Below, piece after piece: positions 37,104-47,992 of a stretch of 64,000 nucleotides of DNA. Every line of letters begins with the position of its first letter. Within the stretch, counting starts at the first letter, position 1. Source of the stretch: Candidatus Obscuribacteraceae bacterium (GTDB lineage Bacteria > Cyanobacteriota > Vampirovibrionia > Obscuribacterales > Obscuribacteraceae); the NCBI GenBank assembly GCA_044226015.1, contig JBGAHS010000002.1, positions 64,001-128,000 of the forward strand, written 5' to 3'. The position numbers and the translations under genes were made by a program. The notes below the pieces were generated by a model. That model ran no database searches. It was not told where the DNA came from and worked only from the letters and a program-made list of their open reading frames with translations.

Positions 37104-37586
37104 TTACTCAGTACTTACGGTTTTTGGACCTTCTTTAACACCCTTTACCTGCGCTTCAGCACAGCGCAATCCTTCAATTAGCGTATTCCATGGCAATAGA
37201 GCGCATTTAATTCGCACAGGGTACTTCTTAACGCCCTGGAGAGCTTCGATTTCCTCAAACTCTTCTGGAAGCTCAATTGCTTCCTGCTTCATCATCATGC
37301 TTTTGAAATTCTCAATCAGCTCCGAAACATGCTCAACAGGCTGACCTTTAACCGCTTCTGTCATCATAGAGCAGGATGCAGTATTTATAGAGCAGCCGCG
37401 GGACTTGATTGAAACATCTTGGACCTTGCCGTCTTTCACATCTAGATAGAGAACAAGCTCATCACCGCACAGGGGATTCACGCCCTCAATAGAGAGAACC
37501 GAATCTCCCTCTAAAACGCCATTATTGCGAGGATTGTGATAATGATCGAGAATCGTCTCTCGATATAACTCATCTGAAAGCGACAT
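37104..37586 (-). CDS. sufU: SUF system NifU-family protein
   Basis: LYRETILDHYHNPRN, NPLCGDE, GCSI, RIKCALLPW; ATG at 37586. Confidence 0.92.
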   Translation of the reverse strand: MSLSDELYRETILDHYHNPRNNGVLEGDSVLSIEGVNPLCGDELVLYLDVKDGKVQDVSIKSRGCSINTASCSMMTEAVKGQPVEHVSELIENFKSMMMKQEAIELPEEFEEIEALQGVKKYPVRIKCALLPWNTLIEGLRCAEAQVKGVKEGPKTVSTE

Positions 37587-38814
37587 GACCAAATACCTTT
37601 TGAACTTTTTTGAGTGATTCAATCAACATATCTACTTCTTCTTTCAGAGTGTAGATATAGAAGCTTGCACGTGCCGTACCCATCACATCAAGATCGCGCA
37701 TTAGCGGCTGGCAGCAATGATGCCCAACCCTTATAGCCACGCCATCTTCATTGACGATTTGCCCTACGTCGTGAGGGTGCAGTCCTTTCAAATTGAACGA
37801 AATAACTCCGCCGCGGTCAGCCGCATTTTTGGGACCATATACGGTGGCATCTTCCAGTTCTGCAAATTTGCTGAGCGCATACTGCGTCAGCTCAATTTCA
37901 TGAGCGCGAACGTTCTCCATTCCTATTGATTTCAAATAATCGATAGCAACACCAGACGCTATCACGTCGGCGATGTTTGGTGTTCCAGCCTCAAACTTCC
38001 ATGGCAGTTGATTTGGAGTGAAACGATCTCTCCAGACCATGCTTATCATGTCACCGCCACCCATTACTGGCGGCATAGCGTCGAGAAGATCGAACTTCCC
38101 GTACAACACACCGACACCTGTTGGACCACACATTTTGTGCATCGAAAGCACTAAGAAGTCGCAATCGATTTCTTTGACGTTTGTTGGAATGTGCGGCACA
38201 CCCTGAGCACCATCAACAAGAACCTTAGTTCCGTTTGCGTGTGCTAGCCTGCAAACTTCAGAAAGCGGAACAATAGTTCCCAAAACGTTCGACATCTGAG
38301 TAATCGCCAGCAACTTGCTACGCGAGTTTAATATGGATTTGAGTGAGCCCAGGTCAAGCAATCCATCTTCAGTCAAACTCAAGAATACAAGTTTGGCACC
38401 CTTTTCTTTTGCCAACATCTGCCAGGGCACCAGATTTGAATGGTGCTCAAGCGGGCTAAGAACGATCTCGTCGCCCTCTTTGATATTTTCTCGTCCCCAG
38501 CTCTGAGCAACAAGATTGATTGCTTCAGTGGCGTTACGAGTAAAAATAACTTCTCTAGTATCAGTGATGCCGATGAAATCAGCCACTTTCTTACGGACAT
38601 TCTCGAACGCCTCAGTAGCTTCTTCAGAAAGCGTGTGGATGCCGCGATGAATATTGGCATTGTAGTGCGAATAATATTGCGTAAGCGCATCGATAACAAT
38701 CTGAGGCTTCTGAGAAGTCGCAGCGCTATCAAGATAAACAAGGGGCTTCCCGTCAATCACTCTTTCCAAGATAGGAAAGTCTTTTCTGATCTTTATAAAA
38801 TCAACTTTTTCCAT
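37570..38814 (-). CDS. sufS: Cysteine desulfurase, SufS type
   Basis: YLDSAATSQKP, NIHRG, EHHSN, HKMCGPTG, FEAGTP, RVGHHCCQPL; ATG at 38814. Confidence 0.95.
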   Translation of the reverse strand: MEKVDFIKIRKDFPILERVIDGKPLVYLDSAATSQKPQIVIDALTQYYSHYNANIHRGIHTLSEEATEAFENVRKKVADFIGITDTREVIFTRNATEAINLVAQSWGRENIKEGDEIVLSPLEHHSNLVPWQMLAKEKGAKLVFLSLTEDGLLDLGSLKSILNSRSKLLAITQMSNVLGTIVPLSEVCRLAHANGTKVLVDGAQGVPHIPTNVKEIDCDFLVLSMHKMCGPTGVGVLYGKFDLLDAMPPVMGGGDMISMVWRDRFTPNQLPWKFEAGTPNIADVIASGVAIDYLKSIGMENVRAHEIELTQYALSKFAELEDATVYGPKNAADRGGVISFNLKGLHPHDVGQIVNEDGVAIRVGHHCCQPLMRDLDVMGTARASFYIYTLKEEVDMLIESLKKVQKVFGHVAFR

Positions 38815-39145
38815 GGGTGGGCAAACCAACATAAATTTCTCCATCTCTTACTTCAACACTGTAAGCGCAAACGCTTCCAACTGCAGGCAAGCAGAGCGCT
38901 TTTCCAGTAGTCACATCAAACTTAGCACCATGTCGAGGACACTCGATTTCACCGTCTGAGAATTCACCATCTCCAAGGGGTCCATCATCATGCGTACATC
39001 GATCATCAATAGCGTGGACTTGTCCTTCCCATCTAGCTACCAGGATGCGACGCTTTCCTGCGGTGAATACTTTAGTACCAGGCTCGGGAATTTCGTCTAC
39101 CTTTCCCAGCTTGTAAAAACGTCGAGTATCATCATTAAGGGTCAT
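38801..39145 (-). CDS. Rieske [2Fe-2S] ferredoxin
   Basis: CTHDD...IECPRHGAKFD (CxH..CxxH). Confidence 0.93.
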   Translation of the reverse strand: MTLNDDTRRFYKLGKVDEIPEPGTKVFTAGKRRILVARWEGQVHAIDDRCTHDDGPLGDGEFSDGEIECPRHGAKFDVTTGKALCLPAVGSVCAYSVEVRDGEIYVGLPTHGKS

Positions 39146-39158
39146 TTCCCCTCCGAAC

Positions 39159-40553
39159 TCAAGTCAACTCCGAAAAGAAATCAGATGCGGCGGCATCGAG
39201 CTTGCCACCATGAATCTTCTTTGAAATCACTTCGCTCAGCCAATCGAGAGCAACTCCGAATGGTGACCGTTCCAGAGTCTGCCTGAAGAATCCTAAAACT
39301 ATCAGCTGCTCGGCTACGGTTCGGGATACTCCGCGACTCATCAAATAGAAGATTTGCTCGCGATCTACAGGTCCTACAGTGGCACCATGTGCGCACTTCA
39401 CATCATCTGCAAGAATTTCGAGCTTCGGAATGGAGTCTGCTGTCGCTGTTCCATCAAGCAAAAGATTCTTGTTTGACTGGTATGCGTCAGTGCGCTGAGC
39501 GACTTTAGCCACACGCACGATCCCCTGATAAACAGAAGACGATTTTTCACGCAATGCTACCCGGAAGGTGATATCAGATTTGGTATCAGCTGCGGAGTGA
39601 TCTTGTATCGTATTGAAGCTGAACTTCTCTTCGCCCGCACCGAAAACTACACCGAGCACTTCGCTTGAAGCACCTGGTGCTCGCAAAATAGTAGCCATAT
39701 CAGACTTTGTTTGGCAGCCGCCCATAGCAAGTGTCAAAGATTCATAACGTCCATCACGATCAACCAGGCAATTAGACCTGTTAACCATAAAAACGGAATC
39801 ATTTTGCTGCTGCACTTCAAGGAAAGACAATTTCGCACCTGGCTTGACGTGCATTTCAACGAATTGAGAAAGCAGCGAAACAGGGCTATTGGCAGTCGAC
39901 TCTTCAGAAGAGTGAATAACATAAGACAGCTTGCATGAACTCATGTCTTCTGCAACGACAACGGTTCTCGGCATCACAGCGTAAGCAGACTTGTCCAGTT
40001 CGACTGCATAGAAAATCGGGGCGCTGATTTCTACACCTTTTGGAATGTATAGAAACAGCCCGCAATTAAAGAGTGCTTTGGAAAGAAGTCCAAATTTTCC
40101 ATCTTCTTCTGCGTCAACAGTGCTGGACAAATAAGGCTTTATCAAATCAGCGTGCTTCTCAACAGCTGTAGCAATATCACAAAGAATGACGCCCTTGCTC
40201 TGAAGCTCTTTGCTCAACGAATAGAAGCCTGGCTTTGAGGTGCTCTGATAGAGCAAACCAGCAGGCGCTTCTTTGAAGTGACTCAGGATGCCAGACAGCC
40301 ATTTAGGACTCTGCTCGAGGGAATCAACTGAATTAGCTGTCGGCAGATTTGCTGTTTGCAGTTCACCAAGATCCAACGAAGAAATTTTGCTGCGCTTCCA
40401 GCCTTCTTCTCTTTCGCTCGGCATGGGGGTCTTAAAATAGGCTTCCCATGCGGCTAATCTGTTGTCTAACAACCATGCTGGTTCAGCAAGTCTTGATGCC
40501 ATTTCTTCTACAGTTTGTTTGGCGATCGTACTCGCCTTTGCTAATTCAGCCAT
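39159..40553 (-). CDS. sufD: Fe-S cluster assembly protein SufD
   Basis: EGWKRS, YQSNKNLLL, PKLEILADDVKCAHGATVG, FYLMSRG. Confidence 0.93.
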   Translation of the reverse strand: MAELAKASTIAKQTVEEMASRLAEPAWLLDNRLAAWEAYFKTPMPSEREEGWKRSKISSLDLGELQTANLPTANSVDSLEQSPKWLSGILSHFKEAPAGLLYQSTSKPGFYSLSKELQSKGVILCDIATAVEKHADLIKPYLSSTVDAEEDGKFGLLSKALFNCGLFLYIPKGVEISAPIFYAVELDKSAYAVMPRTVVVAEDMSSCKLSYVIHSSEESTANSPVSLLSQFVEMHVKPGAKLSFLEVQQQNDSVFMVNRSNCLVDRDGRYESLTLAMGGCQTKSDMATILRAPGASSEVLGVVFGAGEEKFSFNTIQDHSAADTKSDITFRVALREKSSSVYQGIVRVAKVAQRTDAYQSNKNLLLDGTATADSIPKLEILADDVKCAHGATVGPVDREQIFYLMSRGVSRTVAEQLIVLGFFRQTLERSPFGVALDWLSEVISKKIHGGKLDAAASDFFSELT

Positions 40554-40604
40554 TGCTCCTGTCTCGTTCTTCTCTTGTTTTGTTCTGGTTCTATCGAGTT
40601 AGTT

Positions 40605-42032
40605 CTAGCCTACTGAGCCTTCCATGTTCAGTGCAATCAAACGATTAAGCTCAACTGCATATTCCAGCGGAAGTTCCTTCGTGAATGGTTCAAAGAATCC
40701 GTTCACGATCATAGTAGTAGCCTGTTCTTGCGTGAGACCTCTGCTCATCAGATAGAAGAGCTGATCTTCACCAACTTTGGACACGGTTGCTTCGTGCTCA
40801 ATGGTGACATCTTTTTCGTCGATTTCCATTGTCGGATAGGTGTCAGAGCGCGACTCTTCATCCATCAACAAAGCATCGCACTTCACTGATGATTTAACGT
40901 TTTCAGCACCTGGATAAACCTTCACCAGTCCGCGGTAAGAAGTTCTGCCACCATCTTTCGAAATTGACTTCGACACGATAATCGAAGAAGTATCTTTTGC
41001 GAAGTGAACCATTTTGGCACCAGCATCCTGATGTTGTCCTTCGCCCGCGAATGCGATAGAAAGCACCTCACCGTGAGCTTTTGGTCCCATCAAATAGATA
41101 GCTGGATATTTCATGGTCAACTTCGAACCAAGATTGCCATCTACCCACTCAACCTTAGCGCCTTCTTCGGCAACCGCACGTTTGGTCACAAGGTTGTATA
41201 CATTGTTAGACCAGTTTTGAATTGTCGTGTAGCGAATGTGAGCGCCCGGCTTGGCAATCAGTTCAACTACTGCAGAGTGAAGCGAATCAGAGGAATAGGT
41301 CGGAGCTGTACATCCTTCAATGTAGTGAACGTAGCTTCCTGGCTCAGCGATAATCAATGTGCGCTCGAACTGCCCCATATTCTCAGTGTTGATGCGGAAA
41401 TAAGCCTGGAGAGGAATTTCCACTTTGACACCAGCTGGAACCCAAACGAAGCTGCCACCAGACCAAACTGCTGAGTTCAATGCAGAGAACTTGTTATCTG
41501 CCGATGGAATTACTGTTCCAAAATGCTTGCGAACAACTTCTTCGTGTTCTCTCAAACCTGTGTCCATGTCCATGAACACAACACCTTGCTTTTCGAGGTC
41601 TTCTCTAATTGAGTGGTAGACAACTTCCGACTCGTACTGAGCAGTGACGCCAGCAAGAAACTTTCTTTCAGCCTCTGGAATACCCAGACGGTCGAAGGTC
41701 TTCTTAATTGAATCTGGAACTTCTTCCCAATCACGCCCCTGTCTTTCGGTGGCACGAACAAAGTAGTGAATGTTTGCAAAGTCGATATCATCCAACATTT
41801 TGGAGTTGCCCCAGCGAGGCATCGGCTTCTTCAAGAAGATTTCGAGCGCTTTCAAACGAAACTTGAGCATCCACTCAGGCTCATTTTTCATCTTCGAAAT
41901 CTGAGTCACTATTTCTTTTGTGAGTCCTTTTCCGGATTTGAAAGCATAATCGTCTTCAGCCATGTGGAAGCCGTACTTGTAGTCGGCTTTCACACTATGA
42001 AGCATTTCGTCTCTGGATAATTCAGCCACCAT
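40605..42032 (-). CDS. sufB: Fe-S cluster assembly protein SufB
   Basis: [51 protein letters not shown]. Confidence 0.97.
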
Positions 42033-42054
42033 TATTGCCTCCCAGGCTCACTGC

Positions 42055-42825
42055 TTAGTTTGCACCGCTAGATGCGAATTCTTTTGCGACCCAATCGTAA
42101 CCTTGAGCTTCGAGCTCTTTTGCCAACTCGCTATCGCCAGACTTGACGATTTGACCGGACTGCATCACGTGCACAAATTGCGGTGTGACGTAATCGAGAA
42201 GACGTTGATAGTGCGTTATGAGAAGCACGGCATTTTCTGTAGTCTGCAGAGCGTTGATGCCTTCAGCTACTGTGCGCAAGGCGTCGATGTCGAGCCCTGA
42301 ATCGGTCTCATCGAGCAGCGCCATATCTGGCTTAAGCAAAGCCATTTGAAGAATTTCTAGACGTTTCTTCTCACCACCGGAGAAGCCATCATTGACGTAG
42401 CGCGAGAGGAATTCGTCCTTGACTCCCAACTTCGCCATGTTTTCTTTGAGCTCTTTTCTGAACTCTTTGACTGGAATGTCTTTACCGCGGCGAGCTTTCA
42501 CAGTCGCTCGCAGGAAGTTCGAGACAGACACACCCGGAATTGCAACAGGATACTGGAACGCGAGATAGAGACCTGCTCTAGAGCGCTCATCAGCACTCAT
42601 CGCCAGAAGATCTTGCCCCTTGTACTCGACGCTGCCTTTAGTGATCGTGTACTTGGGATGCCCCATGAGCACGTACGATAGCGTCGACTTGCCAGAACCA
42701 TTGCGCCCCATCAGAGCGTGGACTTCGCCCGCATTGATAGTGAGATTCACACCTTTGAGAATCTCTTTTCCTTCCACTTCCACGTGAAGGTCTTTTATCC
42801 GTAATATCGGTGTTTTCGCTGTCAT
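42055..42825 (-). CDS. sufC: Fe-S cluster assembly ATPase SufC
   Basis: [42 protein letters not shown]. Confidence 0.97.
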
Positions 42826-42871
42826 TTTTTCCTACGCCTGCCCCTGTGAGGCTTTTATGCTGTTTTGCTCA

Positions 42872-42927
42872 TCAGTAAACTGAGTTATGATGGACTTTAC
42901 AGATATAATAGTATCAAAAATATATCT
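42872..42927. promoter_or_regulatory. Inverted repeats in the sufC-sufR divergent region (candidate SufR operators)
   Basis: TCAGT-AA-ACTGA (42872-42883) and AGATATA-N13-TATATCT (42901-42927). Confidence 0.4.
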
Positions 42928-43033
42928 ACTGGCGCTTTCCGTTAAGGATTTATTCGCCGCCTGGGGCTAGCCCGAGGGTGTAGAGTGAAAGAGTAACATT
43001 TATCAAGCGGTACAAAAGGAAGAAAGGCTTCAC

Positions 43034-43744
43034 ATGTTGAATCCGCCCCTCAGCGAAAATCCCGAAAACACTCATCAGGCTGTTCTTTTCTACCTGAAGC
43101 GTTGTAATGAAATGACTGTTGCTGATCTTTGCGAAGCGCTTGGGATAACGTCCATGGCGGTTCGCAGACACCTCTCCGGGCTTCAAAAGGACGGACTGGT
43201 GGACTGTCGGCTGGTCAAGCAGACAAAGGGACGACCAACATACAAGTTTCGTTTGACGGCTAAAGGTGAATCGCTATTTCCATCAGCGATAAACAATCTG
43301 GCATTCGAGCTGCTTGATGCTGTGTTCGAAAGCAAGGGCCACGCAGGAGTTATGGAACTCCTGCAGATCAGAAATGATGCTCTGGTTAAAAAAGTTTTGC
43401 CTCAATTAGAAAAACTGAGTTTGCCCGAGCGAGTCAAAGAAGTTGTAAAAATATTTTCAGAAAACGGCTACATGTCTGAGTTCGAGAAGCTTCCAGATGG
43501 GAATTTCTTTATCTATCAGAGGCACTGCGCAGTTCACAATCTCGCATCTCAGTACCGTCAAATTTGTGTTTTAGAGTCAAAATTGCTTGAGCGATTGCTT
43601 GGATTCAAAACAACAAGACAGAAATACATGATGAAGGACGACCCAGTTTGTGGCTACCTCGTTGATGCAAACGAAACTTTCGAACACAGCGCAGAAGTTC
43701 AAGATACAGCTGCCGAGCCACAACTAAGACTAGCAAAAGAATAG
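43034..43744 (+). CDS. sufR: SufR-type Fe-S sensing transcriptional regulator
   Basis: HTH (LGITSMAVRRHL..GRP), C-terminal HC-X12-C...C ligand pattern; divergent from the suf operon. Confidence 0.88.
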   Translation: MLNPPLSENPENTHQAVLFYLKRCNEMTVADLCEALGITSMAVRRHLSGLQKDGLVDCRLVKQTKGRPTYKFRLTAKGESLFPSAINNLAFELLDAVFESKGHAGVMELLQIRNDALVKKVLPQLEKLSLPERVKEVVKIFSENGYMSEFEKLPDGNFFIYQRHCAVHNLASQYRQICVLESKLLERLLGFKTTRQKYMMKDDPVCGYLVDANETFEHSAEVQDTAAEPQLRLAKE

Positions 43745-43787
43745 ATTGACGGCGGATGCCCCCCCGTAAGCAGTGGATTCGGAAATC

Positions 43788-44264
43788 CTATTCTTCTATA
43801 GGAATGCAAATATCAATTTCGCCGTCGAGCATTTCTGGGTCAAAACGCTGATCGTACAACTCGAAATCAGGAGCATCGCGCAGTTTCAATTTGCCCGCAG
43901 AAGCCCATTCGCCCCAAATACGGTCGAGGGTTTCTGGGAGATTTCGAAGTGGTCCCTTATGCGTGAAGACGGCGTATTTCCCTGCCGCAAGTGTTGTTTC
44001 AACCATACCGTTTGGCAACGAATCAATCTTCTCAACAGGAAGTGCAGCGATATAGATGATAGAACCATCGTCTGCTGCTTCCAATATTGGATGCTTCTTG
44101 CAACAAATACCGAATGCAATGCCACTTTTTGAATGACCTATTTCAGTGGTTCGTTGCATGAACTTGTTCCAGAGCTTATTTATTGGAACAATGCTCTTGG
44201 GCTGAAATGCAGCCCCCATGCCGACAGTCTTTTGCTCAGGCAGCTCAATAATTTTTGGTTCCAT
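43788..44264 (-). CDS. GyrI-like small-molecule-binding domain protein
   Basis: INKLW..F, GKYAVFTHKG, IWGEW, PDFELYD, IDICIPI. Confidence 0.9.
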   Translation of the reverse strand: MEPKIIELPEQKTVGMGAAFQPKSIVPINKLWNKFMQRTTEIGHSKSGIAFGICCKKHPILEAADDGSIIYIAALPVEKIDSLPNGMVETTLAAGKYAVFTHKGPLRNLPETLDRIWGEWASAGKLKLRDAPDFELYDQRFDPEMLDGEIDICIPIEE

Positions 44265-44396
44265 ATTTCACGCTCCAGATTTGAACAGATCATATACAGC
44301 AAGTCGAATTCTGTCTCAATCTTGTTTGCTCATTTTTTTCACTCGCGCTAAGTCGTGAAAACCCCATTCAGATTGAGAAGAATCGAAAATTACGTC

Positions 44397-44425
44397 TTGC
44401 AAAGAACTGATTAAGTGCGCATAAT
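44397..44425 (+). promoter_or_regulatory. Sigma70-type promoter with no obvious protein gene downstream
   Basis: TTGCAA-N17-CATAAT on + strand between two minus-strand genes. Confidence 0.55.
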
Positions 44426-44431
44426 GTTTCT

Positions 44432-44613
44432 CGGTTAGCAAACCCCGTGTCCCGAAAGCCCTCAAGCAATTGAGTCTTGAGAGACATGGTTGTCCATGGC
44501 TTGTCCATGGCAAGTTTCTTGGTGCACCCGCGATCTTTCAGAAGTCTGGACAGATCGCGAGCTCCAGGGCGCCACCGCCCCTGGTGTCTTTGAGACACCC
44601 ATTTTCATAACCG
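44432..44613 (+). ncRNA. Candidate structured ncRNA (~180 nt; possibly 6S RNA)
   Basis: Begins 6 nt after the -10 box; nested pairings CGGTTA/TAACCG, GTGTC/GACAC, TGTCCA/TGGACA; alternative local hairpins also possible. Confidence 0.35.
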
Positions 44614-44881
44614 CGTTTGCCAGTGGCAACTGTTTCTCTCGGAGGCTGATTCAATGTGCCAATCAAAACTGAAATCATTCCTCGCCTTTCCAGAATTGTT
44701 TCAGCACATTTCCTATCGCAGAGAACGCGGCTTTTCCAACGGCTTGCCGAGCACAGCATCCTCGTGGGCTCGTCACTACAATACATTGCGAAGTGTTTGC
44801 GCGTTTGCACTCGTTTCGGAAAAGAAATTGAAAAACAATCAACAGGCTCCAGGGGCTACTGGTGCCAATACTCGACGAAAG

Positions 44882-46327
44882 CTAAATGCCTTTTTGCTGA
44901 CTGTAGCGCCCGCTAGACTTGAGCGGAATAGTCGAAAGTTTCACAAAATTTGCTGGTCCGCGGGCTGCAATTGGTAAGCCCCCGGTAATAATCATCGAAT
45001 CACCAGGTCCGACAAAACCTTGCTTTTGCAACGTGTCTTCAACGAGCGCTAAAGTTGCTTCAGAGTCACGAACCTCTGTCAGCATTATTGGTATCACTCC
45101 CCAACACAAGGCAATCTGCCTGTACACATGTTGATGTTGAGTCAAAGCGATGATTGGAGTTGGTGGTCTAAATTGAGATATCAATCTGGCGGTCGAACCA
45201 GTTTTGGTGAAAGCTGCAATTGCCTTTGCTTTCATATCTACAGCCATCGCACAAGCTGCGTGCGCTATCGCGTGAGCAGACGATGGAGTATGATGCTTGT
45301 GAAGAACATCGTAGTCAACACTGCCTTCAGCAGCGGTGGCAATACGCCCCATCATTTTGACTGACTCGATAGGATATTTCCCTGAAGCAGACTCACCAGA
45401 AAGCATGATTGCGTCGGTGCCATCAAAAATAGCATTCGCCACGTCGGAGGCTTCCGCTCGAGTCGGCCTGGGGTTCTCGATCATAGACTCCAGCATCTGA
45501 GTAGCCGTGATTACGGGCTTACCAATTGCATTAGCCTTTTTGGTAATCAGCTTTTGTGCAGCCGGAACTTTTTCTGGTGGCAACTCCACACCAAGGTCGC
45601 CTCTGGCGATCATGACACCATCGGCGGCATCAAGAATTTCATCAAGATGCTCAAGGGCTTCAGGTTTTTCCAGCTTCGCAATAATTGAAACTGGTGGCCA
45701 GTGATTGCCAATTAAGCGGCGCAGGTAGTGGACATCATCGGGGTCTCTCACGAATGAAAGAGCCACAAAATCGACTTCATTTCGCAAACCGAATTCAAGA
45801 TCAACCTTATCTTTTTCAGTTATGGCAGGAATAGATAGGCGAACCCCAGGAAGGTTGATGCCCTTCTTATTCTTTAGTATGCCACCATTTACTACTTCGC
45901 AGACCACATCTGTTTCGGTGGTGTCCAAAACCATCAGCTCAATTAGACCATCATCAAGCAAGATAGTGTCAGTGACTCGTACTTCAAGTGCCAGCTTCGT
46001 GTAGTTGGTGCTTACGCAATGCGCGTTGCCTTCAACTTTGCGACTGGTCAAAACAAACTTCTGCCCGGTAAAGAGCCTTACGGGAATTCCATCTTTCATC
46101 ATTCCCGTTCTGATTTTCGGACCAGAAAGATCAAGCAAGATCCCTACAGGCTTGCCAACATCATCTGAGATGCTGCGCAGATCTTCAATCACACGTTGCA
46201 CAGTTGCATGCTCAGCATGAGAGCAATTAATTCTGGCTATATCCATGCCAGCTTCAACAAGCAGTTCGAGCATATCCCGATCGTTAGTAGCTGGACCTAC
46301 TGTCGCGACAATTTTTGTTCGGCGCAT
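44882..46327 (-). CDS. pyk: Pyruvate kinase
   Basis: RTKIVATVGP, ARINCSH, DLSGPKIR, IAKLEK, MIARGDLGVE, ATQMLESM, PTRAEASDVANA. Confidence 0.97.
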   Translation of the reverse strand: MRRTKIVATVGPATNDRDMLELLVEAGMDIARINCSHAEHATVQRVIEDLRSISDDVGKPVGILLDLSGPKIRTGMMKDGIPVRLFTGQKFVLTSRKVEGNAHCVSTNYTKLALEVRVTDTILLDDGLIELMVLDTTETDVVCEVVNGGILKNKKGINLPGVRLSIPAITEKDKVDLEFGLRNEVDFVALSFVRDPDDVHYLRRLIGNHWPPVSIIAKLEKPEALEHLDEILDAADGVMIARGDLGVELPPEKVPAAQKLITKKANAIGKPVITATQMLESMIENPRPTRAEASDVANAIFDGTDAIMLSGESASGKYPIESVKMMGRIATAAEGSVDYDVLHKHHTPSSAHAIAHAACAMAVDMKAKAIAAFTKTGSTARLISQFRPPTPIIALTQHQHVYRQIALCWGVIPIMLTEVRDSEATLALVEDTLQKQGFVGPGDSMIITGGLPIAARGPANFVKLSTIPLKSSGRYSQQKGI

Positions 46328-46336
46328 AAACCTGTC

Positions 46337-47992
46337 TTAGTTCACAGTTTGAGTTTCACGGTCTTGATAAAGCAAATTGTCCGGGTCTATGTCCGGGAAG
46401 CAGTTATCGATTTCCTCAATTTCTGCAACGCGCGCTTCATTGACCGAATTGTTCTTGATCATTTCCACGATTTCGTCGAAACGTTCGTGATGTTCGTTGA
46501 ATCGCTGCACAGCATACTGTTTCGCCTGACCGGTCGTGATCAAGAAGGGCCAGTCGCTAGACTGAAGCAGTACTAGTTCTCTGGCAGCTTGCTTGAGCGC
46601 ACGCTCTAGCGCACCACTTGCATGCGGATGCTGCTTGGCTAACCCTTCAAGTGCCTTCTCTGCATTATTGATGATCGGCCACATCCATTCAGTCTCGTTG
46701 TTGTACCAGACTTGATAATGTCCGCCAGCACCCCAGGAAGACTCGGGCAATTCAATAATTCTTGTAGGTTGATTTTGTTCAACGTACTCACCAGCAGTGC
46801 ACATATTTACTGCGGTATAGGTTTTCAGCTTCTTAATCACTTCTTTGATGAACGTAATGCCTTCAAACCACCAGTGCCCAAACAACTCAGTGTCGAAGCT
46901 AACCATTACCAGACCAGGTGTTCCGGTCTTTCGCAAATGTTCTGTTAATGAGTGCTGAACTAAACCAACATAATGGTCAGAATTCTCATGAATTCGTTCC
47001 AGAGCTACATCTGGATTATAGATTTCCTTGTAACCAAGGTCAGTATCTTTCGAAGTCAGCCGCCAATAGTGCAAACCAGAGCGGTCATCTTTCTTGTGGA
47101 ATTCACGGAAATTTCCGTCGCCAGGATAGCCAGCATCTGCGGACCAAACTTGATAGCCACATTCGTGGTGGCGTCCCATCACTGCGACGGGGTAATCCTT
47201 CAGCCAATAAGCTTCATACGTATCAAGCCCTGTTTCAGGTCTTGAAGCAGCTGGAATGTACTCAATATTTCCGTAAGCACCGAAAACGCGGCGCATTTCA
47301 TGGGTCTGACCGCCCTTGATTACATCAGACTCGGTGAAGAAATACTTCAAACCTGTTGCATGCAACCATTTATCTACACCAGCTCTTGAGTTTTGCGATG
47401 GACGATAAGCGCACTCAGGCAGCCAGCAACCTTTTGGATCTCTGTGGAACATGCGCTTGTACGCGTCCACACCGGTTTTGTACTGCAAATACAAAGAGGA
47501 GTCTGTTGCCAGCAATGGTGAGAAACAGTGGGTAGCAGCTGAAGTCGTGATTTCTACAGCACCGAGGTCCTGATACTTCTTGAAGCCACCGCAAATATCA
47601 CGGTTCCAAACATTCTGGAAATCGGAAAGAATTTTCTGAAACCAGTTCAAATAAAACTTCGCCAGTTGTAGGCGATTCATATCTGGTGTTTCGCCAAGAG
47701 GGTTATAACGCTCTTCGTCTTTTCTGGCAGCTTCAATGCGATCAGCCAACCACTTTTCAAAACCATTCTTAAGATAGCTGTCCGAGAGCTGCTCTCCGAG
47801 AATAGGGGTAATACCTATCGTTAGCTTCGCAAGGATTCCTTCGTCGTAAAGTTCAGCAATCATGTTGAGAAGTGGAATGTAGGTCTCTGCCATACATTCG
47901 TAAAGGCTCTCTTCTCCGAATGGCCACATACCCGCCTTGCGATAGAAGGGCAAATGGCTGTGTAGCATCAAAACGAAAGAACCTACGCTCAC
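46337..47992 (-). CDS. GH57 1,4-alpha-glucan branching enzyme (with DUF1957)
   Basis: LHSHLPF, ETYIPL, WLPECAY, FDTELFGHWWFEG, LLQSSDWPF. Confidence 0.93.
   Translation of the reverse strand: MSVGSFVLMLHSHLPFYRKAGMWPFGEESLYECMAETYIPLLNMIAELYDEGILAKLTIGITPILGEQLSDSYLKNGFEKWLADRIEAARKDEERYNPLGETPDMNRLQLAKFYLNWFQKILSDFQNVWNRDICGGFKKYQDLGAVEITTSAATHCFSPLLATDSSLYLQYKTGVDAYKRMFHRDPKGCWLPECAYRPSQNSRAGVDKWLHATGLKYFFTESDVIKGGQTHEMRRVFGAYGNIEYIPAASRPETGLDTYEAYWLKDYPVAVMGRHHECGYQVWSADAGYPGDGNFREFHKKDDRSGLHYWRLTSKDTDLGYKEIYNPDVALERIHENSDHYVGLVQHSLTEHLRKTGTPGLVMVSFDTELFGHWWFEGITFIKEVIKKLKTYTAVNMCTAGEYVEQNQPTRIIELPESSWGAGGHYQVWYNNETEWMWPIINNAEKALEGLAKQHPHASGALERALKQAARELVLLQSSDWPFLITTGQAKQYAVQRFNEHHERFDEIVEMIKNNSVNEARVAEIEEIDNCFPDIDPDNLLYQDRETQTVN

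Follow-up and report, generated by a model that had tools for sequence, protein, structure and literature searches.

A probable new structured noncoding RNA beside the pyruvate kinase gene of an Obscuribacteraceae bacterium, with a predicted long-range pairing of its conserved C-rich block

Locus and promoter

The window analysed here is a stretch of 64,000 nucleotides (G000:C1:64001-128000, numbered below from its first letter) from a genome of 8.19 Mb that is 92 % complete. The element under study occupies a gap of 617 nt between a GyrI-like domain gene (43788 to 44264, minus strand) and the pyruvate kinase gene pyk (44882 to 46327, minus strand), the latter convergent with the RNA described below. 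The GyrI-like domain gene corresponds to the C-terminal half of an AraC-GyrI regulator; the genome G004 has this regulator intact (L356:1498-2406), and G007 has it in broken form (L352:10437-10820). Window positions 37570 to 43744 contain the complete suf operon, together with a SufR-like regulator in divergent orientation. In another genome (G013, locus L014), a REP-like repeat of about 30 nt, present in two copies with GC-rich inverted arms, lies about 200 nt downstream of pyk.

An initial annotation had described an orphan promoter, TTGCAA-N17-CATAAT, pointing on the plus strand into a gap of about 600 bp between two minus-strand genes, and had proposed that it drives a rod-like RNA of about 180 nt, either a divergent 6S RNA or a new, switchable noncoding RNA. 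The gap and its flanking genes were found as described, and so was the sigma70-type promoter (44397 to 44425, plus strand; -35 TTGCAA, spacer of 17 nt, -10 CATAAT). On its own the promoter match is weak, with 4 such sites per 1.5 kb versus 1.8 +/- 1.1 in shuffles. A 9-nt block around the -10 (GCATAATGT) is identical in the congener G006, where the -35 is weaker (ATGCAA, spacer of 16 nt). A GTGAA...CCCATT block upstream of the -35 (44355 to 44368) is also conserved in G006 and could be a regulator site or a promoter element of the divergent gene.

The full-length noncoding RNA is predicted to span 44432 to 44866 on the plus strand, a length of about 435 nt rather than 180 nt (about 300 nt in G006), with a fold z-score of -4.2; its start was placed from the -10 and its end from the last base of a long-range helix, P4. 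The element extends past 44613 because conserved pairing and RNA contigs reach about 44845 to 44866.

Homologue in a congener

Homologues were sought by following pyk into 41 genomes. In the congener G006 the corresponding gap beside pyk contains a related sequence, in the same orientation and on the same strand, and the gaps of G006 and of the window's genome (G000) align at z 6.7. A model (R1) derived solely from the window sequence placed G006 at the top of 104 genomes with an E-value of 1.3e-6, followed by 0.02 for the next match, and its four other matches (E 0.02 to 0.33) all lie within long ORFs. The conserved blocks are GCATAATGT at the -10, GUCC, the linker GUUUCUYGG, the core of hairpin P3, a 17-nt block at 44570 to 44586 and CAAUCAAAA, and they are not attributable to drift, as just 81 of 210 fourfold-degenerate sites of pyk (39 %) are identical between the two genomes. 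The comparison shows that the syntenic homologue is under purifying selection. This homologue folds at z -4.5 with the same P2 and P3 hairpins, and at z -3.0 in its long form.

Pairs were mapped between the two species by hand from invariant anchors, and since there are only two homologues the covariation amounts to one pairwise comparison. Compensatory changes are present in P2 and P4; the P3 core is invariant and is therefore silent on pairing. A model-fitted alignment (A7) has two-sided changes in 13 of 42 pairs and carries little weight, having been fitted to the assumed structure. Two trees did not discriminate between a sister and a non-sister relationship of G000 and G006, nor between gain and loss of the element.

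Fold of the 5' domain and relation to 6S RNA

The region 44430 to 44615 folds at -74.9 kcal/mol (z -4.79), far better than chance: none of 200 shuffles was as good, and z <= -4 was reached by none of 120 random 180-nt windows taken from the same stretch. The signal is strongest at 44440 to 44619 (z -5.0). All four complementary blocks of the proposed rod, and the local hairpins, are where the initial annotation had put them and are able to pair. The rod itself did not hold up, as forcing its helices gives -48.1 versus -74.9 kcal/mol, a cost of 26.8 kcal/mol. Three of its four helices, the inner ones, have pair probabilities of 0.002 or less, the outer CGGTTA/TAACCG helix forms in the short form only and is gone from the full-length fold, and neither the inner nor the outer helices have a counterpart in the G006 homologue. 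The local hairpins, initially regarded as a competing fold, do exist and are in fact the dominant one, a tandem array in both G000 and G006.

The 5' domain (44444 to 44614, plus strand) is delimited by RNA contigs that start at 44444, the base of the first stem, in two studies and end at 44613/44614 in two studies. It is possibly a discrete processed or terminated form of about 170 nt, and in this sense the proposed length of about 180 nt survives as a candidate sub-form, not as the whole element. Hairpin P1 (44445 to 44489) differs between the two species, both in its sequence and in its length. Hairpin P2 (44490 to 44513) has a conserved bulged U, and all 8 of its anchored pairs are kept, 4 of them with changes on both sides. 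The U-rich linker GUUUCUYGG (44514 to 44522) is conserved and largely single-stranded between P2 and P3, and hairpin P3 (44519 to 44567) has an invariant 7-bp core, GCGAUCU/AGAUCGC; a strain variant, C44551T, affects a bulged base of P3. A short hairpin with a pyrimidine tail (44617 to 44639), for which a clear equivalent is not evident in G006, may be a weak terminator or a processing site for the short form.

A rod with a central bulge defines 6S RNA (PMC8414754). The reading of the element as a second, divergent 6S RNA could draw on the 5' form of about 180 nt, the sigma70-type promoter and the 5'/3' pairing in the short form. Some bacteria are also said to have two 6S paralogues. It is largely refuted by the energetic cost of the rod, by the lack of any RF00013 match in 43500 to 45500 even at E <= 10, by the local nature of the conserved helices, and by the absence from both homologues of the 6S consensus motifs flanking the bulge (GGGAG / CCCACC, from the Rfam line). 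These motifs are present in the sole 6S candidate of the genome, at G000:C6:800550-800755 (L001:1501-1706, minus strand) upstream of a tsaE-like gene. That candidate scores 23 bits, under the Rfam gathering score of 46.4, and is 78 to 80 % conserved in 4 of 5 congeners, each of which scores as 6S at 27 to 37 bits; the 6S of this lineage is under-annotated. No 6S was found in G006, which is uninformative because the neighbouring tsaE is also unassembled there. Rfam scans (4227 families) of the element and of its G006 homologue gave nothing meaningful, and tmRNA, RNase P and SRP RNA all map to other places in the genome.

Long-range pairing of the C-rich block

The 17-nt block CGCCACCRCYCCUGGUG (44570 to 44586, plus strand), of which 15 positions are identical in G006, lies in the 5' arm of P4 (44568 to 44593). 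In the fold of 44430 to 44870 this arm pairs with a 3' arm, or lock, at 44839 to 44866. The partner segment is 254 nt downstream of the block in G000 and 115 nt in G006, and the variable domain enclosed by P4 contains the conserved A-rich motif CAAUCAAAA (44660 to 44668), a predicted hairpin loop in G006. The P4 duplex of G000 reaches about -37.5 kcal/mol, a value that 1 of 2000 shuffled versions of the downstream region equalled and that 7 of 3000 random genomic stretches matched; that of G006 reaches -26.9 kcal/mol, equalled by 10 of 2000 downstream-region shuffles. Sixteen of 17 anchored pairs are kept in both species, with four two-sided and two one-sided changes, and both substitutions inside the 17-nt block have compensating changes in the distant arm. 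Sequence is retained in the left arm, and the right arm retains only the ability to pair with it; this suggests a second role for the left arm, with the right arm serving to cover it. When prefixes of increasing length were folded, the block of either species paired only locally until the 3' end was present, and then entered P4. The initial suggestion of a switchable RNA stands as a predicted switch, between local and distant 3' pairing of the block and not between rod and hairpins. The 3' half folded alone is not unusually stable (z -0.7).

RNA-library contigs, strand and coding potential

Of 20 sequencing runs that contain part of 44300 to 44880, 4 are RNA libraries; they belong to 3 sludge and biofilm studies. 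The contigs considered come from these RNA libraries only; they are unstranded and give no expression level, and the runs were selected for holding this stretch. Among the matches listed, contigs cover 44444 to 44731 (run X5), 44444 to 44614 (X16), 44453 to 44613 and 44646 to 44840 (X6) and 44588 to 44845 (X10), differing from the window at 0 to 2 positions and sharing ends between studies at 44444, 44613/4 and 44840/5. In the same set of listed matches, none enters the promoter side, which was part of the query, the four runs have zero depth over 42804 to 44411 and 45015 to 45215, and the pyk coding region has no near-identical contig cover. X5 and X6 also have near-identical contigs at 47719 to 47955, in the 5' part of a GH57 branching-enzyme-like gene. 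Taken together the contigs span 44444 to 44845, and with the syntenic homologue and its compensatory changes they support the second of the initial options, a new noncoding RNA.

Transcription on the plus strand is inferred from the conserved -10 block, which sits at the 5' edge of the element. It is further favoured by those contigs that begin where the first stem closes, 12 nt past the predicted start, and in G000 by both the P4 duplex (-37.6 kcal/mol on the plus strand versus -30.4 on the minus) and the long-form fold (z -4.2 versus -2.2). The signal of G006 is neutral to slightly contrary (z -3.0 plus versus -3.65 minus). The structure might instead belong to the minus strand, as a long and stable extension at the 3' end of the pyk mRNA, or as the leader of the next minus-strand gene. 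The unstranded contigs, the minus-strand fold of G006, at least as good as that on the plus strand, and the position next to the pyk stop in both genomes are in keeping with such an origin, which is nevertheless judged decidedly improbable: the -10 block points the other way, P4 of G000 loses 7 kcal/mol when folded on the minus strand, pyk itself lacks near-identical contigs among the matches listed, and the downstream gene differs between the genomes (GyrI-like domain versus TonB-receptor-like) with no Rfam riboswitch found. A hairpin at 44845 to 44866, within the 3' arm of P4, could plausibly act as the pyk terminator when read on the minus strand.

A GGAGG motif stands 8 nt upstream of an ATG at 44654, which opens a frame of 107 codons, and in G006 a GGAG precedes an ORF of 23 codons. 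With the long-range lock, these motifs would fit a translation-locked mRNA for a small protein, comparable to type I toxin-antitoxin mRNAs silenced by long-range pairing. This is very unlikely, given that the small frames of G006 are unrelated to those of G000, that the frames are not hydrophobic, and that the 107-codon frame has neither a Pfam match nor a homologue in 40 relatives. No ORF conserved between G000 and G006 was found, which also led to the rejection of a type I toxin mRNA with a conserved small hydrophobic ORF. Both G000 frames pass 44866 without a stop, the 107-codon frame running beyond the predicted 3' end of the RNA into antisense pyk.

Distribution and origin

Clear homologues are limited to 2 of 104 genomes of the family, 2 of 151 of the class and 2 of 8 of the genus, and the element is single-copy in its genome. 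The large model searches scored the best 18 to 26 candidates per genome, so divergent copies may have been missed. A second model (R2) matched 2 genomes out of 40, 3 out of 104 and 3 out of 151, with the same coding locus of G087 as the additional match in both larger sets; in congeners it matched 1 of 5, at E 9.9, and unfiltered over the syntenic intervals of G001 to G004 and G007 it found nothing. BLASTN in 61 relatives returned two chance matches in coding DNA only and missed G006. Searched by itself, the 17-nt block lacks specificity, as 94 of 104 genomes contain it when 1 mismatch is allowed. Several candidates were examined and set aside. Of the 3 genomes among 104 that matched a three-part pattern, the third, G110, has nothing else in common with the element; searches of 5 congeners with looser patterns and with the G006 sequence yielded only coding matches or short ones due to chance; and a metagenome pattern scan gave 2 matches, both in unrelated GC-rich DNA. 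Pattern scans of GTDB and viral genomes gave chance matches, with R2 run on 120 of 120 GTDB and 80 of 120 viral loci among the matches listed. The GTDB locus L090 scored 33.8 bits and is antisense to a dihydrolipoamide-acyltransferase-like ORF with a fold z of -0.2, a case indicating that loci selected beforehand receive inflated E-values from the model. Phage and plasmid collections gave no match.

Since sufR and pyk are immediate neighbours in more distant genera, the gap between them in this genus is a hotspot of insertion. The interval of G004 is complete (sufR, a TonB-receptor-like gene, AraC-GyrI and pyk) and has no copy of the RNA, which makes the element dispensable or recently gained. 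The AraC half of the regulator is lost in G000 and the whole regulator in G006; G007 has the broken AraC-GyrI gene and other inserted genes. An origin of the element from the decayed AraC half was not supported (no tblastn match, DNA alignment z 1.4).

A domesticated or relic mobile element, either non-autonomous or a guide-type RNA without its protein, would have the arms of P4 as terminal inverted repeats. Such a relic would suit the patchy presence of the element, its position where G004 has the AraC N-terminal half, the other, unrelated genes carried by the interval in G001, G002, G003 and G007, and the P4 arms themselves, which are imperfect inverted repeats. It is held to be distinctly unlikely in view of the single copy, the lack of matches in phage or plasmid collections or in the 80 viral loci scored among the matches listed, and the position of the promoter and the conserved hairpins beyond the repeat pair. 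The retention of sequence in the left arm and of pairing alone in the right also fits selection on RNA structure over decay. A MITE was rejected in particular, the element being single-copy with a conserved part that extends outside the inverted repeats.

No account of this RNA, or of noncoding RNAs of the lineage, was found among the top-ranked literature matches. A survey of structures in 202 cyanobacterial genomes (PMC12873609) does not mention this lineage in its main text, and its supplements could list related motifs. The RNA is narrowly distributed and apparently uncatalogued, and is probably new.

Insights into function

The element combines non-random folding with a syntenic homologue, compensatory changes in P2 and P4 and RNA contigs over 44444 to 44845, and is very probably a real, selected and expressed noncoding RNA. 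The preferred reading, to which we give a probability of roughly 0.4, is that of a structured plus-strand regulatory RNA of about 435 nt with a conserved promoter, whose 17-nt block would be locked by the 3' end and freed in a shorter form. The lock-and-release mechanism is by itself advanced tentatively, at somewhat less than even odds. In this model, the 5' leader would be trimmed to 44444, and during transcription the block would pair locally until the last 25 nt or so were made, whereupon P4 would capture it. Release could follow from termination or cleavage near 44614 to 44640, or from a double-strand nuclease cutting P4. Most speculatively, the freed block and the GUUUCU linker might act in trans on another RNA or on an RNA-binding protein.

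Potential partners were sought in several ways. No target stood out: among 4011 start-codon regions (G000 only), two of three seeds paired no better than shuffled sequences and the block just modestly better, and pairing with 16S rRNA was equalled by 3 of 40 shuffles. An Hfq-like gene is present in 3 of 3 genomes, below the Pfam cut-off, and a CsrA gene was found in none of the 3. A CsrB/RsmZ-type sponge was rejected, with 3 GGA per RNA and CsrA in 0 of 3 genomes. A riboswitch or leader was also rejected: no Rfam aptamer matched, no plus-strand gene follows, and the minus-strand neighbours differ.

The element could also be a constitutively folded protein-binding RNA, for example one associated with RNA polymerase as are Ms1 and CoRP, in which P4 would be permanent and the fragments mere processing products. 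Its size of 300 to 435 nt, its detection in metatranscriptomes without flanking mRNA and its possible 5'/3' cleavage resemble CoRP, and the invariant P3 core and linker would suit protein contact. This alternative is unlikely, as the genome has no Ms1 match and does have a canonical 6S, only 2 of the genus's 8 genomes have the element, and PMC11077062 reports one type of abundant RNA polymerase-bound RNA per species. Searching the genome with the Ms1 model (RF02566) at E <= 1 gave 0 matches, and no genome of the control set passed the cut-off. The alternatives to the preferred reading are ranked in the order Ms1/CoRP-like RNA, mobile relic, minus-strand pyk extension, locked small-protein mRNA and 6S paralogue.

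With no match among 4227 Rfam families and three independent lines of support, the element represents an uncatalogued structured RNA family. Its presence in 2 of 8 congeners, at the position of a truncated regulator gene, also makes it relevant to the question of how regulatory RNAs emerge; it is limited to two species, both uncultured. A wider claim would be a long shot: that the element belongs to a new class of abundant self-locked RNA in non-photosynthetic cyanobacterial relatives, activated by removal of a 3' domain that exposes a C-rich block, and acting on the transcription or translation machinery alongside canonical 6S.

Comparison with known systems

With Ms1 (RF02566) and CoRP (PMC11077062) the element has in common a length of 300 to 500 nt, a lineage-restricted distribution, pronounced structure and an intergenic location. 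CoRP, of 516 nt, is cut into two stable pieces of 318 and 198 nt (PMC11077062), and the contigs found here may hint at the same. The element differs in having no sequence or model match to either RNA and in coexisting with 6S in this genome. Like 6S RNA (RF00013), it is a stand-alone intergenic RNA with a sigma70-type promoter and a short form of similar length; it lacks the rod with central bulge, the Rfam score and the consensus motifs, and the 6S of its host is at another locus.

Bacterial Y RNAs are recognized by a 5' GNCGAAN0-1G motif, tRNA-like arms and a Ro60 gene within 4 kb (PMC4201824). The genome has three Y-like RNAs with a common handle (L342:6400-7090), one of which matches YrlA (RF02553; L342:6454-6515, 42.9 bits), preceding a 585-aa Ro60-like gene (L342:7104-8861) in which a Pfam search for TROVE gave no detection. 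A ThiF-like gene lies upstream, and the segment L342:5990-6360, which precedes the Y-like RNAs, contains two imperfect repeats of about 95 nt that each end in CGCCACCA and have GAAGACGGYCCGA and CTCGGCTAAT in common. The Y RNA pathway is thus present in the same cell as the element. A Y RNA identity was nevertheless rejected: the element has neither the motif nor tRNA-like arms, does not match YrlA, lacks the handle of the genome's own Y RNAs, and lies about 700 kb from the Ro60-like gene (about C1:815 kb).

Base-pairing bacterial sRNAs include some with C-rich seeds. The element shares with them a putative promoter of its own, conserved short segments that are single-stranded or C-rich, and a genus-level distribution; it is much longer and more structured, its seed-like block is predicted to be locked, and it has no strong U-tailed terminator. 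In type I toxin mRNAs such as hok and aapA1, long-range 5'-3' locks hold the mRNA silent. For the element, neither a conserved or hydrophobic ORF nor an antisense partner was found. The likeness lies in a functional stretch that the distant 3' end keeps paired and whose release is predicted once that end is removed, and in the present case it is the locked stretch itself that is conserved.
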